Virus record (IMG/VR): IMGVR_UViG_3300042544_000912
Coordinates: 66,899 to 130,898 of that record
DNA from: a virus
Direction: 5' to 3' (one strand)
DNA: 64,000 nt
Every line of letters starts with the position of its first letter. The first letter of the stretch is position 1. Under the pieces are notes generated by a model that was not told where the DNA came from, did no database searches, and saw only the letters and a program-made list of their open reading frames with translations. Position numbers and translations under genes: made by a program. This document shows, piece by piece, positions 26,638-62,776 of this stretch.

Positions 26638-26666
26638 TTGACATTTCCTTGCGAATCGAGTAGTAT
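26638..26666 (+). promoter_or_regulatory. sigma70-type promoter TTGACA-17-TAGTAT with CGAATCG in the spacer
   Basis: GAATC at 26653-26657; late-like CATAAATA at 26626-26633 just upstream. Confidence 0.75.
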
Positions 26667-26672
26667 ATAAAC

Positions 26673-27278
26673 ATGATTAGTTTTAAAGAGTTTATAAGTG
26701 AGTCGCAAGACGGTGCCGGATTAACTATCTGGGACATTGATGAAACTCTATTTCGCACAACTGCCCGCGTCCATATCATCAAAGATGGTAAGATTATCAA
26801 GACGTTAGGTAACAAGCAATACAATACATATAATTTACAGCCGGGTGAGTCCTTCGACTTTAGCGAGTTTAGGGACGCCCGGCATTTTCAATCTACCAGC
26901 GAACCAATCGCAAGAGCGATTCGCAAACTGATTGCAATGCACAAGAACATCAAGGCCAAGGGTAGCAAGATGGTTGTTATCACAGCCCGCTCCGACTTTG
27001 ATGACCGTGATATTTTTCTAGATACATTTCGTAAGCAAGGCATTGATATCGATGATATCCATGTCCATCGTGCTGGCAATCTTGGCGCCATGCCCTCTGC
27101 GGCTGCTAAGAAAATCTATATCAAACAATACCTTGACACTGGTAAATATACTCGCGCCCGTCTCTTTGATGACGCGGTGTCCAATCTCCAGATGTTCAAG
27201 GACTTAGCGAATGAATACCCTAATGTGAAGTTTGAGCCGTTCTTGGCTCACGAAGATGGAACAATGACTCGTTTTTAA
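26673..27278 (+). CDS. HAD-superfamily hydrolase with capsid-targeting-like N-terminus
   Basis: WDIDETLF (DxD motif I), VITAR (motif II), K, and LFDDAVSNL (motif IV); begins MISFKEFISE. Confidence 0.75.
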   Translation: MISFKEFISESQDGAGLTIWDIDETLFRTTARVHIIKDGKIIKTLGNKQYNTYNLQPGESFDFSEFRDARHFQSTSEPIARAIRKLIAMHKNIKAKGSKMVVITARSDFDDRDIFLDTFRKQGIDIDDIHVHRAGNLGAMPSAAAKKIYIKQYLDTGKYTRARLFDDAVSNLQMFKDLANEYPNVKFEPFLAHEDGTMTRF

Positions 27279-27279
27279 C

Positions 27280-27307
27280 TTGACATTACCATCGATTCGT
27301 GTATACT
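27280..27307 (+). promoter_or_regulatory. sigma70-type promoter TTGACA-16-TATACT with CGATTCG in the spacer
   Basis: GATTC at 27294-27298. Confidence 0.7.
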
Positions 27308-27322
27308 AATAATATAAGGAGA

Positions 27323-27691
27323 ATGATTATGTTTAAGTCTATTGTTTCTAGTATTGTTGCTATCAGTGTTCTTGCTACTCCTGTAGTAGCAGAAGCCAAG
27401 GGTCGTGGTGAACACCGCAGTGAACGCCACGAGCGCAAGCGCGGCAATCATATTAATACCGGAGAAGCTATTGCTATCGGTCTTGGTGCCTTTATTCTCG
27501 GTGCTGCTATTAAAAACAACAATAGCCGCGACGAGGAAGTTGAGCGCGAAGTTTATGACCGCGAGTATGAATATCACTATCGCAACCGTGATTCATATTA
27601 TCGCCGTGACCGCAACTGCCGCACCACAGAAGTTACTGAATATGACTACTACGGCAATCGATATATTCGCCGTGAGCGCCGTTGTTTCTAA
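27323..27691 (+). CDS. Exported/membrane hypothetical protein of bacterial type
   Basis: Signal peptide ending AEA, Arg/His-rich linker, glycine-zipper-like GEAIAIGLGAFILGAAI, Tyr/Arg-rich C-terminus; SD GGAG favours start 27323 or 27329. Confidence 0.7.
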   Translation: MIMFKSIVSSIVAISVLATPVVAEAKGRGEHRSERHERKRGNHINTGEAIAIGLGAFILGAAIKNNNSRDEEVEREVYDREYEYHYRNRDSYYRRDRNCRTTEVTEYDYYGNRYIRRERRCF

Positions 27692-27745
27692 AAGAATCGC
27701 TTGACATTTGGTCGCGAATCGACTATAGTAAATAATGTGATTGAT
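27692..27745 (+). repeat. 54-bp promoter cassette, copy 1 (TTGACA-17-TATAGT, two GAATC sites)
   Basis: 52/54 identical to 29980-30033 by manual alignment. Confidence 0.9.
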
Positions 27746-27761
27746 TGATTGATGAGGTTTT

Positions 27762-29981
27762 GTGATGTCCCAGTTTGCTGAAAAGTCGATTCTCGCCAAG
27801 TTGTTGGCGACCGAAAATATCCACGTAGAACACCAGAAGACAAGTACCGCTTACTTCAATCTGGAGACCCGCACGGTCGTGCTGCCGATCTTCAAAGAAA
27901 CTTCGGCTGACCTTTATGACCTGCTTATCGGCCACGAAGTTGGTCACGCTCTCGAAACGCCTGCCGAGGGCTGGCACTCCAGCATCTCTGAGAAGGGTGT
28001 AGGCTTCAAGTCTTTCCTCAACATCATTGAAGATGCTCGTATCGAACGTAAGATGAAGACCCGTTATCCTGGTCTTCGTCGGTCGTTCTACAATGGTTAC
28101 CAAGAACTCTTCGAAAAGAATTTCTTCGGTGTCGAAGGCATGGATGTCAATAAGCTAAAGTTTATTGACCGCATCAACCTTCACGCCAAAGTCGGTTCGT
28201 TTTTGAACGTCAAGTTCTCGGAAGAAGAGCAAGCGATTGTCAATCGTCTTGACGACCTGAACACCTGGGAAGATGTGGTCGCTTTGGCTAGCGAACTCTA
28301 TGACCGCGCCGAAAATTCCACCGAAGAACTTGACTTCGAAAATTTTCTGAACCAGTTTGAAATGTCGGAAGATAGTGACGGTGAATTCGACCCGTCTGCC
28401 GACTACGTTGAAGTTCCTAATTCAGAAAAGTCCGACGCTAAGGACGAACCCAATTCACCTTCTCCTAAAGGTCAGAAGTCGGAAGACGAGACCGAAGAGT
28501 CGAAGTCATCTTCTTCGGATGATGCCGAAGACAAGACCAAAGAAGAGAAGGACGATGGTTCATCTGAGGACAGCAAGTCCGAGGACAGCAAGGAAGAAAG
28601 TCCTGAGCCAACTTCGTTCACCGATGAAAACTTTCGCCGGAACGAGGATAGTTTGCTTGATGCAAACGCCCGTGAGACGTTCTATGCCAAACTTCCTGTT
28701 CTGAACCCTGCCGATTTTATTGTTGGTATCAATACTATCGAAAAGATGTTGGCGTTCTCTGTCGGTGGCGCGGCCAGTCGCGCTGGTAAAACTGTCGAAC
28801 AGGTCAAGATGGAACTCTACAAGGACTTTCTTGCCAAGAACAGCAAGTACCTCAGTGCAATGGCACAGGACTTCGAACGTAAGAAGAAAGCCAAGTCACT
28901 TATGCGCGCCCAGACTTCCAAGACTGGTCGCATCAACATGGACAAGGTTTGGGCTTACAAGATTACCGAAGACTTGTTTCTCCAGAACACGGTTGTTCCC
29001 AACGGTCAGAACCACGGTATGCTTCTGTACCTCGATATGTCGGGTAGCATGTCTACTAACATGGCTGGTACCATGGAGCAGCTGGTTCTTCTGGCTTCGT
29101 TCTGCCAGAAAGTCCGCATTCCGTTCGAAGTTTATGGCTTCATCACGAACAGCGGTGCTCCACACTCATATTACGATACATTGCGTAGCCGTAATAACTA
29201 TTCTGACCCCAAGAATCTAGTGATTTCTGATGGTAGTTTCCGTATGCTCCAGCTTGTAACCACTGGCGTTTCTGGTGGTAAGTTCAAGACCCAGATGGCA
29301 AATCTTCTGGCTCTTGGCAATACTTATAGTCGCAACTACGCCGACCTGTATCTGGACCGTCCAGCTGCAAATGCTTTCGGCCTTGGTAGCACTCCTCTGG
29401 AAGAAGCCATTCTACTCGGCCGCTACATTGCCGAAGACTTCAAGGTGCGCAACCGCGTTGAGGTTCTCTCGTCGGTATTTCTCACCGATGGTGATGGCGA
29501 TTGTAACTTTGAAACCGTTGGTCCTAACGACCATTATCGCAAGAACCTAGCGATTGTTGACTCTAAGACTCGTCGCACCTTTACGCAGCCACATGATAGC
29601 AGCGGTAGCTATCGCAGTAAGTCTTATTGCAAGGCTCTTCTGGATCTTTATCGTAACACCACTGGTTCGCGGATGATTAACTTCTATCTGCTTGGTTCAT
29701 ACGATTTGAAGTATTTCTTGGCCCGCTCTCCTATCACTGGCACAGCGAACGAAGCCGCCAAGAAAGCCTTCAAGAAGGAAGGTGCGGCACTTCTCAAGGA
29801 CATCAATGGCTTTGATGACCAGTTCTTGATTAAGGCTGGTGCTAGCCTTCAAGTCACGGAAGATACACTGACTGTGGACTCCAACGACAAGAAGGAATTG
29901 ACTAAGGCTTTCAAGGCTTTTCAAGATAAAAAGTCTATTGGTCGTGTGATTCTTACGAAAATGGTTGATGCTGTGGCGTAA
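27762..29981 (+). CDS. HExxH metallopeptidase-like domain plus C-terminal vWA domain (CobT-like)
   Basis: HEVGHALET zincin motif, acidic linker, MIDAS YLDMSGSM, STPL and FLTDGDG. Confidence 0.85.
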   Translation: MMSQFAEKSILAKLLATENIHVEHQKTSTAYFNLETRTVVLPIFKETSADLYDLLIGHEVGHALETPAEGWHSSISEKGVGFKSFLNIIEDARIERKMKTRYPGLRRSFYNGYQELFEKNFFGVEGMDVNKLKFIDRINLHAKVGSFLNVKFSEEEQAIVNRLDDLNTWEDVVALASELYDRAENSTEELDFENFLNQFEMSEDSDGEFDPSADYVEVPNSEKSDAKDEPNSPSPKGQKSEDETEESKSSSSDDAEDKTKEEKDDGSSEDSKSEDSKEESPEPTSFTDENFRRNEDSLLDANARETFYAKLPVLNPADFIVGINTIEKMLAFSVGGAASRAGKTVEQVKMELYKDFLAKNSKYLSAMAQDFERKKKAKSLMRAQTSKTGRINMDKVWAYKITEDLFLQNTVVPNGQNHGMLLYLDMSGSMSTNMAGTMEQLVLLASFCQKVRIPFEVYGFITNSGAPHSYYDTLRSRNNYSDPKNLVISDGSFRMLQLVTTGVSGGKFKTQMANLLALGNTYSRNYADLYLDRPAANAFGLGSTPLEEAILLGRYIAEDFKVRNRVEVLSSVFLTDGDGDCNFETVGPNDHYRKNLAIVDSKTRRTFTQPHDSSGSYRSKSYCKALLDLYRNTTGSRMINFYLLGSYDLKYFLARSPITGTANEAAKKAFKKEGAALLKDINGFDDQFLIKAGASLQVTEDTLTVDSNDKKELTKAFKAFQDKKSIGRVILTKMVDAVA

Positions 29982-30033
29982 GAATCACTTGACATTTGGT
30001 CGCGAATCGACTATAGTGAATAATGTGATTGAT
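29980..30033 (+). repeat. 54-bp promoter cassette, copy 2
   Basis: TTGACA 29989-29994, TATAGT 30012-30017, GAATC at 29982 and 30004. Confidence 0.9.
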
Positions 30034-30063: not shown

Positions 30064-31230
30064 ATGACTATTGGTACCCGTGAAGACCTGCTTGCTGCCC
30101 TTCGTGCCGCTGATACGAATGGTGGTGTTTTTCGTAAGAAGGATGTTTTTGCCATCGCCCACCCAATGGGCATTGAGAAGTTGAATTGGCTCCTCTCGAA
30201 GGAGAATGTCGTTTCTCGTGGTGTTTACAATCTCTCGGCAGAAATGGCTGGTGTGGCACCCGCTGCACCCAAGCCTCGGCCTGTCGCTGAGATTGTCTCG
30301 AAGCCCGTTGCTAAGACGGTAATCCAACCTAAGCTGGAAGTCATTGTGGACAACCTGGTTCCTCGTCTTGATGCGACCTACGTTCCGTTTGGCTTTTACG
30401 CGGACCTTACCAAGGTTCTCAAGGCAGAAGCCTTCTATCCTACGTTCATCTCTGGTCTGTCTGGTAACGGTAAGACTACGATGGTCGAACAGGCTTGCGC
30501 TAAGTTGAAGCGCGAATGCCTTCGCGTCAACATCTCGGTAGAAACCGATGAAGATGACCTGATTGGTGGCAACACCCTTGTCGATGGTAACGTAGTGTAC
30601 CGCGAAGGTCCTGTCCTCACTGCCATGAAGCGTGGTGCAATTCTTATTCTTGATGAAATCGACCGCGGGTCGAATAAGTTGATGTGCATCCAGGCTATTC
30701 TGGAAGGCAAGCCTTACTTCAATAAGAAGACTGGCGAGACTGTCTTCCCCGCTAAGGGCTTCAACGTGATTGCAACGGCTAACACCAAGGGTCGTGGTTC
30801 CGACGACGGTAAGTTCATCTCAGCCCAGATTCTTGATGACGCCTTCCTTGAGCGTTTCGCCATCACAGTCGAGCAAGAATACCCATCGGCCAAGGTCGAA
30901 AAGAAGATTGTCATGAACAAGATGGAAAAGGCTGGTGCGATTGATGAAGAATTCGCCGACAACCTTGTTACTTGGGCTGAAATCATCCGTAAGACTTTCT
31001 ACGATGGTGGTATTGACGACCTGATTTCTACTCGCCGTCTGGAACACATTGTCAACGCCTTCGCCATGTTCAAGTCTCGCCAAAAGGCAGTTGAACTCTG
31101 CGTTAACCGCTTTGATGCTGATACCAAGTCGGCGTTCCTCGACCTCTACACCAAGGTCGATGCCAAGGTAGATACTGGCCCTACCGATAACGTCAATGAA
31201 GACGCATTTTTTGAAGAAACCCCATTCTAA
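30064..31230 (+). CDS. MoxR/CobS-like AAA+ ATPase
   Basis: GLSGNGKT Walker A, LILDEID Walker B, ATANTKG, AFLERF and STRRL motifs; follows its vWA partner. Confidence 0.9.
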   Translation: MTIGTREDLLAALRAADTNGGVFRKKDVFAIAHPMGIEKLNWLLSKENVVSRGVYNLSAEMAGVAPAAPKPRPVAEIVSKPVAKTVIQPKLEVIVDNLVPRLDATYVPFGFYADLTKVLKAEAFYPTFISGLSGNGKTTMVEQACAKLKRECLRVNISVETDEDDLIGGNTLVDGNVVYREGPVLTAMKRGAILILDEIDRGSNKLMCIQAILEGKPYFNKKTGETVFPAKGFNVIATANTKGRGSDDGKFISAQILDDAFLERFAITVEQEYPSAKVEKKIVMNKMEKAGAIDEEFADNLVTWAEIIRKTFYDGGIDDLISTRRLEHIVNAFAMFKSRQKAVELCVNRFDADTKSAFLDLYTKVDAKVDTGPTDNVNEDAFFEETPF

Positions 31231-32828: not shown

Positions 32829-33412
32829 TGGCTGAGAAGTTTAAAATTAAGCACAAATGGGATGATGAAGCAAGCGAACAGGAACTACCTGAGATTGTTC
32901 CTGCTGTAGTCTTTAAGACCCGTGTCCGCGATAACTCAATTGAAGGTCCAAATCCATTCCGTTGGGAAGATAAGACAACCTATGATTACTTTGCTGGTAA
33001 GCGTGTAGTTCTGTTCTCTCTTCCTGGTGCATTCACACCGACATGTTCTACCATGCAACTTCCTGGTTTCGAACAGAACTTCGCGGAGTTTAAGGCCCTC
33101 GGTATCAAGGACATCTACTGTGTATCTGTCAATGATTCGTTTGTCATGAATTGCTGGGCCAAAGATCAGAAGATTAAGAAGGTCAAGATGATTCCTGATG
33201 GTTCTGCTAAGTTCACTGGTAAGATGAAAATGCTTGTGGAAAAAGACAACCTTGGTTTTGGTCATCGTTCGTGGCGCTATGCATGTGTTGTGAACAACGG
33301 TCAGATTGAGAAGTGGTTCATTGAAGGTGATGTTGTTGAAGATAACATCGATTCAGATCCTTATGGTGTAACTTCACCTGAGAATATTCTTGACTGGTTG
33401 CGCAACAACTGA
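32828..33412 (+). CDS. Peroxiredoxin (Prx5/redoxin family)
   Basis: FSLPGAFTPTCS peroxidatic motif, SVNDSFVM, IPDGS and RSWRYA. Confidence 0.92.
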   Translation: MAEKFKIKHKWDDEASEQELPEIVPAVVFKTRVRDNSIEGPNPFRWEDKTTYDYFAGKRVVLFSLPGAFTPTCSTMQLPGFEQNFAEFKALGIKDIYCVSVNDSFVMNCWAKDQKIKKVKMIPDGSAKFTGKMKMLVEKDNLGFGHRSWRYACVVNNGQIEKWFIEGDVVEDNIDSDPYGVTSPENILDWLRNN

Positions 33413-33490
33413 TATAGTGAATGCTGGTCACTAAGCCAGAGTCCGTGGATGCACTAACATCGCGACGGACATTTTATTTTATTATGGAGA

Positions 33491-61826: not shown

Positions 61827-62776
61827 TGCTAGTAGCCCTAGCTATTACAGGTGTAGCTGGCTACTTTTCGATTTTGGGATTGATGGCTATCTTTCCTGCA
61901 TCACCTATCGCAGTAGCTGCCATGGGTGTTGTCTTAGAACTGGCCAAACTTGTCACGGCAAGCTGGGTGTATCGCAATTGGAAAACAGCAAATCGATTGC
62001 TGAAAACCTATTTTACGATGGCAGTCATTGTCCTATCGTTCATTACAAGTATGGGCGTATTTGGTTATCTAAGTAAAGCACATATCGAACACACCACTGT
62101 TGGTGGTTCAACGCAAATACAAATTGCACAACTAGAAAGTCAGAAGACTTCGGCAGAAAGGAAACTAAAGAATGCACAAACATCTTTGGATACTTTGGAC
62201 CGACTTGCTTCTGGGGAAAATATCCTCGATGCTAACTTCATTAGAAATCGACAAAAGAGGGAACGTGCGGCACTCAATAAAGAAATTGAGGGTGCGACTA
62301 CAGACATTCAGGCTATTGAGACTAATCTCATACCGCTCAAAACAGAAACGCTCAAACTCGAAGCGGAAGTAGGGCCAATTAAATATGTAGCGGAACTGTT
62401 CTACGGTAGTGGTGATAACGCCACTATCGATAAGGCCGTTCGTATGATGATTATCATTCTTATCTTTGTTTTCGACCCATTGGCAATTCTTTTAATAATT
62501 GCAGCAAATATGACATTTTTAGGGTTGACAAAACGAGAAGAATCAGATACAATGGTTATTGTCCCTGTTGAAGTTAATGAACAGAAAGCTCCAGTCGAGA
62601 CACCAAAAGCTAAGAAAATACGTAAGAAGAAACCTAAAGCTCCCACACCAGAAGTTCCTGACTTCTTTAAGTTTGAGAAACATGGTTCTACTCACGATGT
62701 TCCGATGCCAGATCCTCCTCGCCGAAATGCAAGGGGTCAAATTATAGTTGATGAAAAAAATATTAGGAGAATGTGA
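61805..62776 (+). CDS. Multi-TM coiled-coil membrane protein
   Basis: Three N-terminal TM helices, coiled coil, EVGPIKY, IFVFDPLAILL; ATG 61805 with SD AGG. Confidence 0.7.
   Translation: MFFAALLMLVALAITGVAGYFSILGLMAIFPASPIAVAAMGVVLELAKLVTASWVYRNWKTANRLLKTYFTMAVIVLSFITSMGVFGYLSKAHIEHTTVGGSTQIQIAQLESQKTSAERKLKNAQTSLDTLDRLASGENILDANFIRNRQKRERAALNKEIEGATTDIQAIETNLIPLKTETLKLEAEVGPIKYVAELFYGSGDNATIDKAVRMMIIILIFVFDPLAILLIIAANMTFLGLTKREESDTMVIVPVEVNEQKAPVETPKAKKIRKKKPKAPTPEVPDFFKFEKHGSTHDVPMPDPPRRNARGQIIVDEKNIRRM
62525..62553 (+). promoter_or_regulatory. sigma70-type promoter TTGACA-17-TACAAT with GAATC in the spacer
   Basis: Inside the membrane gene; GAATC at 62540-62544. Confidence 0.65.

Follow-up and report, generated by a model that had tools for sequence, protein, structure and literature searches.

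What does a GANTC word do at a fixed place inside the spacers of strong phage promoters, and what might read it? The question is raised by a 64,000-nucleotide stretch of viral DNA (IMG/VR record IMGVR_UViG_3300042544_000912, positions 66,899 to 130,898; hereafter the window), in which five sigma70-type promoters carry such a word 3 nt before the -10 hexamer. It forms the final 64 kb of a 130,898-bp contig (G000; GC 41.6%, completeness about 80%), whose source is an uncultured T4-like phage of roughly 170 kb, kin of the pelagimyophages and cyanomyophages. A sequence-only reading of the window had proposed that host methylation of GANTC by CcrM, together with the cofactor GcrA, switches on an early gene set. 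The pattern of conservation described below indicates that the underlying word, CGAATC, is a real, position-fixed promoter element that is under purifying selection and occurs in several divergent T4-like lineages; who reads it is a matter on which we can offer candidates of unequal weight.

A CGAATC box anchored to the -10 hexamer

The box promoters of the window and their upstream GAATC words are as follows.

26638..26666 (+), promoter P1, TTGACA-N17-TAGTAT, with GAATC at 26653 and the box CGAATCG at 26652-26658
27280..27307 (+), promoter P2, TTGACA-N16-TATACT, with GATTC at 27294 and the box CGATTCG at 27293-27299, a single flipped copy
27694..27698 (+), upstream GAATC of P3, 2 nt 5' of the -35 hexamer, centre at about -40
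27701..27729 (+), promoter P3, TTGACA-N17-TATAGT, with GAATC at 27716 and the box CGAATCG at 27715-27721
29982..29986 (+), upstream GAATC of P4, 2 nt 5' of the -35 hexamer, missing in several relatives
29989..30017 (+), promoter P4, TTGACA-N17-TATAGT, a 29-nt copy of P3, with GAATC at 30004 and the box CGAATCG at 30003-30009
62525..62553 (+), promoter P5, TTGACA-N17-TACAAT, with GAATC at 62540 (AGAATCA, 62539-62545), inside a 344-aa open reading frame (ORF)

All five promoters stand where the sequence-only reading had placed them, as do the second GAATC words at 27694 and 29982. P1 to P4 are the four highest-scoring sigma70-like sites in the 25.5-34 kb region, matching the consensus at 10-11 of 12 positions, and none has the TG at -15/-14 that would make it an extended -10 (TGn) promoter. 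The gap between GANTC and the -10 hexamer is 3 nt at all five, and it stays constant whether the spacer has 16 or 17 nt, so that the -10 is what the word is anchored to. The statistics offered with the earlier claim need revision: instead of 13 candidate promoters the window has 22 matches to TTGAC-N16-18-TAnnnT (9.2 expected), five of them with the box, and the four promoters said to be independent do not all count as such, because the clustered four are paralogous cassettes and two of these (27701 and 29989) have one and the same 29-nt sequence. A sixth box promoter lies elsewhere on the contig, at genome position 24447, with the -10 hexamer TTATAA.

Related genomes give the register, that is, the distance of the word from the -10, a much firmer footing. 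Through the CobT-like protein encoded behind P3 we retrieved 38 related loci (identity 49-97%), among them a complete 171.6-kb relative, G001, which was analysed over its full length. The enrichment by register that the earlier reading called for is present there: GANTC occupies the same register at 15 of 97 promoter-like sites, against an expectation of 0.29 and at most one site in every other register (naive Poisson p about 6e-21, a value that ignores paralogy). With looser -10 hexamers the family has 17 members in G001, most of them between 127 and 162 kb, in a block of small early genes missing from the window's contig, and the orthologue of P5, at G001 position 120341, retains its box. 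GANTC centres around 67 strong G001 promoters fall into three groups, at -18 (15 sites), at -40/-39 (6) and at +19 to +22 (11); the last are inverted GATTCG copies directly 5' of the ATG, within a recurrent leader.

The unit that is kept is smaller than a palindrome. C precedes GAATC in 15 of the 17 G001 members and the base that follows may be G, T or A, while GAATC lies on the top strand in 16 of the 17; because the 3' base varies and the orientation is nearly constant, the unit is CGAATC (GATTCG on the template strand) and not CGANTCG. The earlier case for a palindromic site that flips orientation rests on one promoter (27280) of about 17 and is not supported. Many of the 16-nt-spacer cassettes of G001 read GAATC-TGC-TAnnnT.

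Among the orthologues of P1, P3 and P4 the core is invariant (in relatives whose CobT-like proteins are 73-97% identical) in the midst of variable surroundings: five 5'-spacer positions vary at P1, and three 5'-spacer positions plus the gap bases at P3 and P4. The upstream GAATC of P3 is likewise retained in all P3 orthologues, with variable flanks. The P2 site has been lost in one lineage, which reads GTTTC (L002, L014, L017), and some relatives have an additional promoter whose word is CGATTCT, CGAATCT or CAATTCT. The breadth of the element was scanned in viral contigs with the pattern TTGAC-N8-9-CGAATC-NNN-TAnnnT. The exact P3 29-mer is present in 39 viral contig stretches, and further contigs with multiple hits come from other T4-like lineages (gp43 41-44% identical, GC 36-46%), which have CGAATC[A/G/T], most commonly CGAATCA, in the same register but within unrelated spacers. 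Chance and simple hitch-hiking can be ruled out as explanations, because the core is kept while both flanks vary and distant lineages keep the same word despite their unrelated spacers. A literature search found no published description of the box pattern.

Early-promoter cassettes and a GcrA-like layout

The box promoters come as repeated units, and in this they resemble the PeSL elements of T4-type phages, which are recombination substrates (Arbiol 2010, PMC2839356; Comeau 2014, PMC4122927). Like PeSLs they combine a repeated early sigma70-like promoter with a conserved leader, a Shine-Dalgarno sequence and a start codon, each unit placed before a small and variable gene (many of the 17 G001 members share the leader ...AGTAGTCAGTGAGAAGAAAGTGATTCGTTATG), and box-promoter cassettes have been gained and lost between close relatives. 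An example is a mobile cassette between the CobT-like and CobS-like genes, in which a box promoter and a conserved leader precede an ORF of 145 aa that has an HNH-type motif (LEHLDGDH...CHGKK); the cassette is found in L026:6252-6755 and L029:6246-6749, as a remnant in L007:6224-6319, and not in the window. Unlike PeSLs, P1 to P4 have no terminator-like hairpin upstream, and the preceding genes have their stop codons either within the -35 or 2-10 nt 5' of it; nor do the PeSL descriptions (PMC2839356, PMC4122927) give a conserved spacer word such as CGAATC. The box is a real third promoter element, besides the -35 and the -10, in mobile early-promoter cassettes.

Two other phage systems invite comparison. 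T4 relies on UP elements, on ADP-ribosylation by Alt and later on AsiA/MotA, and its early promoters are not known to have a GANTC word in the spacer. They are nonetheless similar to the promoters described here in being very strong sigma70 promoters, with conserved positions beyond the hexamers, that are used directly after injection (Hinton 2010, PMC2988021). Sites for a host cell-cycle regulator in phage promoters have a precedent in the CtrA-box promoters (Mascolo 2022, PMC9437464), but there the motif is TTAA-N7-TTAA and the phages are cultured siphoviruses with known hosts.

The closest match in layout is to the GcrA promoters of Caulobacter crescentus, which have a sigma70-type -35/-10 with GANTC in a YGAKTCG context in the spacer and downstream, although those drive host genes. 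GcrA recognizes TGATTCG / YGAKTCK, prefers methylated sites, and has its sites narrowly at about -20 and at +2 to +30 (Haakonsen 2015, PMC4647560); upstream boxes have also been placed at -20 +/- 1 and -30 +/- 2 (Wu 2023, PMC9976885). The match of the box to this motif, proposed earlier for CGATTCG, holds and extends further than was claimed: four of the window promoters have CGATTCG on one strand and the fifth TGATTCT, both within YGAKTCG/K, and related lineages have TGATTCG. In the PcsM-derived scaffold TTGACA-CCCGGGCGAATCCCTGC-TATAAT the box is CGAATC, 5 nt from the -10 (PMC9976885), and the phage promoters have this very 6-mer, likewise on the non-template strand. The downstream boxes of PmipZ read GAGTCG on the top strand (PMC9976885), and the phage leader copies, GATTCG on the non-template strand, likewise fit GAKTCG; at +19 to +22 they fall within the GcrA range of +5 to +30. 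P1 has in addition a GcrA-type context, TGAGTCG, at 26699..26705 (+), about +29 from the promoter and within the gene behind it, and its G001 orthologue likewise has a GANTC site at +29. As in the GcrA system the box is tied to the -10, where sigma domain 2, the partner of GcrA, sits.

The distribution of GANTC over the genome is consistent with this likeness. The word is under-represented in the window (169 occurrences against 272 +/- 14.5 in shuffles) and on the contig (observed/expected 0.73 under a Markov expectation). In G001 it is denser between genes than within them (5.7/kb intergenic vs 2.8/kb coding, p 2e-5), and the GATTCG context accounts for 28 of 44 intergenic GANTC sites but only 62 of 453 coding ones (odds ratio 11, p 1.5e-12). 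Transfer RNA (tRNA) genes were masked in these density figures, as they must be, because the T-arm GTTCGAATC contains CGAATC; in G001, 24 tRNA genes are clustered at 125.3-133.4 kb (L085:5259-13427). CcrM-bearing Alphaproteobacteria show depletion of GANTC overall and enrichment between genes (PMC3973325), and the similar distribution in the phage hints at an alphaproteobacterial host. Cr30 avoids GANTC mildly, and its intergenic GANTC sites have no recurring context. In HTVC008M (NC_020484) avoidance is far above that of this phage or Cr30, with 43 GANTC against about 252 expected (ratio 0.17).

What might read the box

We propose that the box would be where a factor carried by the sigma70 holoenzyme docks, close to the -10. 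The best candidate for this factor would be GcrA of the host, which in Alphaproteobacteria is a cofactor of sigma70 domain 2. Once docked, it would make polymerase binding and the open complex more stable, and phage early promoters would thereby outcompete host promoters. A host GcrA-type cofactor riding on sigma70 is our best guess for the reader, but a tentative one, to which we would give somewhat less than an even chance.

Several points weigh against it. In the phage, 3 nt separate the box from the -10 and not the 5 nt of PcsM, and the box, which spans -21 to -16, would have its centre at -18 (if the -10 hexamer is taken as -12 to -7), just outside -20 +/- 1. There are no box promoters in Cr30 (Caulobacter), phiM12 and phiM9 (Sinorhizobium) or HTVC008M (SAR11), and a published scan of phage genomes for the GcrA motif gave no positional signal (PMC9437464). 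The homologues of gcrA and ccrM for which a search had been suggested are missing from the contig and the complete relative: GcrA (PF07750, E<=10) is absent from these and from two further relatives (G000 to G003), as is any CcrM-type gene. Four related G001 cassettes and some orthologues keep the promoter without GANTC. Every box-bearing lineage belongs to the T4-like kin, so that a reader encoded by the phages and common to them is no less possible. The host clues, too, fall short: a GapR-like gene carried by relatives is no proof of a host, because T4 itself has a distant homologue of GapR in DsbA (PMC7824862), and the bacterial matches to the CobS-like protein, all in contigs of metagenome-assembled genomes (MAGs) from five unrelated phyla, give no host, those contigs being probably mis-binned phage DNA. 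The phage also carries an extra copy near -40, for which no counterpart has been described for GcrA. A strict-pattern register test in 151 Alphaproteobacteria genomes had no power to help either way, with 31 hits for the 3-nt gap against 34 in reversed-pattern controls and 29 against 20 for the 5-nt gap.

Some of these points would be expected if the box were the operator of another regulator, either a phage gene product or a protein brought in with the virion, such as a repressor that turns early promoters off when early expression gives way to middle; cooperative or looping binding would then result from the boxes at -40, -18 and +20. We consider such a regulator somewhat unlikely, but it would fit the T4-like kinship of every box-bearing contig, the lack of the box in cultured phages whose hosts have GcrA, the shift of 2 bp relative to PcsM that a GcrA reader leaves unexplained, and the overlap of the box with spacer and leader, both good positions for repression. 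This phage group is not known to have MotA/AsiA or a mechanism of early shut-off, which also speaks for such a regulator. On the other side, no candidate for it turned up, as the nine first genes behind box promoters yielded no DNA-binding family, and an immediate-early activator would need to be injected with the DNA. The agreement of a 6-7-mer with the GcrA element in sequence, orientation and placement would moreover have to be coincidence (about 1/8 for the flanks alone). Alternatively, there may be no separate reader at all, the word being kept by direct polymerase contact (sigma region 3 or the beta-prime zipper), by spacer geometry, or by recombinational homogenisation of the cassettes. 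The promoters are after all repeated mobile cassettes, the HNH cassette is gained and lost among relatives, PeSL elements are recombination substrates, and the box is anchored to the -10, beside the extended -10 zone. Homogenisation, however, leaves unexplained a fixed core amid drifting flanks, the same word in distant lineages with unrelated spacers, and the recurrent inverted copies at +20, while the genome also has conserved sigma70-type promoters that are just as strong but lack the box, as at 33390. No sigma70 spacer contact is known to read CGAATC, a further count against an explanation that we regard as unlikely.

In its strict form the earlier proposal goes further than a GcrA-type reader: methyl groups on the GANTC adenine, whether set by CcrM of the host or by a phage methyltransferase, would gate early transcription and tie it to the host cell cycle or to methylation state. 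Such gating is a stricter subset of reading by GcrA, and the chances we assign to the four explanations need not sum to one. In its favour are the preference of GcrA for methylated sites (PMC4647560), the GANTC distribution like that of CcrM-bearing genomes (PMC3973325), and a divergent DNA methyltransferase-like protein of the clade (G001 126429-127472, L085:6429-7472; G003 copy L078:1477-2517 (-)) that could mark progeny DNA. A box promoter follows its gene directly, and in G003 the protein has TLDHLFS at its C-terminus, a tail like those that bind the clamp. But the protein has an FSCGWG ... SPPY arrangement, with motif order I then IV (PF01555 match in G003 and G001), and no match among solved structures (PDB) even at E<=10, and on these grounds we rejected it as a CcrM; SPPY suggests N4-cytosine methylation. 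Its 895 metagenomic homologues have no informative names. Because GANTC is avoided in the genome, it is likely not protected by a phage enzyme, and because the promoters are near consensus, they should fire without help; both points count against gating, as does the want of a CcrM-type gene in the complete relative, and a cell-cycle-limited host enzyme may methylate lytic progeny DNA poorly. Gating by methylation therefore strikes us as improbable.

If a GcrA-type cofactor does prove to be the reader, these would be the first phage promoters built for a sigma70-bound cofactor and not for a classical activator, and GcrA biology would reach past the host cell cycle. The box would then be a sequence signature predicting alphaproteobacterial hosts of uncultured phages, and work in Alphaproteobacteria would gain short and strong promoters that depend on a cofactor. 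With a reader other than GcrA, the box would be an undescribed third bacterial promoter element conserved across many phages. It is tempting to go further, to a picture in which the early promoters of widespread uncultured aquatic T4-like phages are tuned to GcrA-loaded sigma70, and methylation of the box, by host CcrM or a clamp-tethered phage methyltransferase, separates parental from new DNA and so times the early programme; we would call this a long shot.

The gene neighbourhood and the phage

Profile searches of the window proteins place P1 to P4 within a T4-type replication block; the genes directly behind them, and then the block as a whole, are the following.

26673..27278 (+), HAD-superfamily phosphatase-like gene, behind P1 (PF03767, weak; phrog_415)
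27329..27691 (+), Arg/Tyr-rich small protein with a hydrophobic, signal-like N-terminus, behind P2 (no Pfam family)
27762..29981 (+), CobT-like vWA 'peptidase' gene, behind P3 (phrog_459, E 6e-179)
30064..31230 (+), CobS-like AAA+ ATPase gene, behind P4 (AAA_5, CbbQ_C; phrog_249)
Block, first group: gp46/47-like nuclease, peptide deformylase, 2OG oxygenase, ClpP-like protease
Block, second group: HAD enzyme, small exported protein, CobT-like vWA 'peptidase', CobS AAA+ ATPase
Block, third group: DUF3310, gp45 clamp, redoxin, gp44 clamp loader, gp43 polymerase

The ATG of the HAD gene (26673) follows the -10 of P1 by only 6 nt, an arrangement conserved in G001, and because of this a leaderless P1 transcript is possible. 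A late-type CATAAATA motif lies directly 5' of the P1 -35 and is also conserved in G001. Further along, at 33390-33418 and 5' of the gp44 clamp-loader gene, is a strong conserved promoter, TTGACT-N17-TATAGT, with no GANTC; because of it the genome can be said to hold two classes of sigma70-like promoter. The 25.5-34 kb region has no known RNA families.

Homologues of the CobT-like protein occur in cyanophages and pelagiphages (about 32% identity), the window's gp43 shares about 49% identity with the polymerases of cyanomyophages, and Pelagibacter phage HTVC008M is syntenic with the contig (71 genes in common, mean identity 42%). Pelagimyophages can have curli CsgG/F and radical-SAM genes (PMC7029224). 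Megablast found no near-identical cultured phage, and the promoter cassette had no genuine match in 50,697 phage records. A cyanophage host was considered and rejected, psbA being missing from the complete relative G001. Another gene hints at an alphaproteobacterial host: G001 (125523-125759; L085:5523-5759), where it adjoins the tRNA cluster, and G003 (L232) encode a 78-aa GapR-family protein (PF10073, E 1e-25) that is 37-55% identical to cellular GapR domains. GapR is widespread in Alphaproteobacteria (PMC7373187); in our samples the family is found in 46 of 61 genomes of that class (45 of 60 without the unpublished genome G050), in none of 61 above the cut-off in the phylum of a Flavobacteriaceae MAG, and, among 14 named control genomes, only in Caulobacter. 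Other box-bearing contigs gave no GapR, neither three fragments (18-46% complete) nor two complete records of about 175-183 kb, each with one box match in the stretch fetched. Among cultured T4-like phages HTVC008M, phiM12 and cyanophage S-CRM01 are without the family, and Cr30 and phiM9 have it.

The contig also avoids many palindromes other than GANTC. TCGA, ACGT and GCGC show no avoidance, but observed/expected ratios are 0.36 for GTAC, 0.39 for GATC and 0.69 for CCNGG, and three 6-mers are missing altogether: AAGCTT (20 expected), AGCGCT (15.5) and GCATGC (12).

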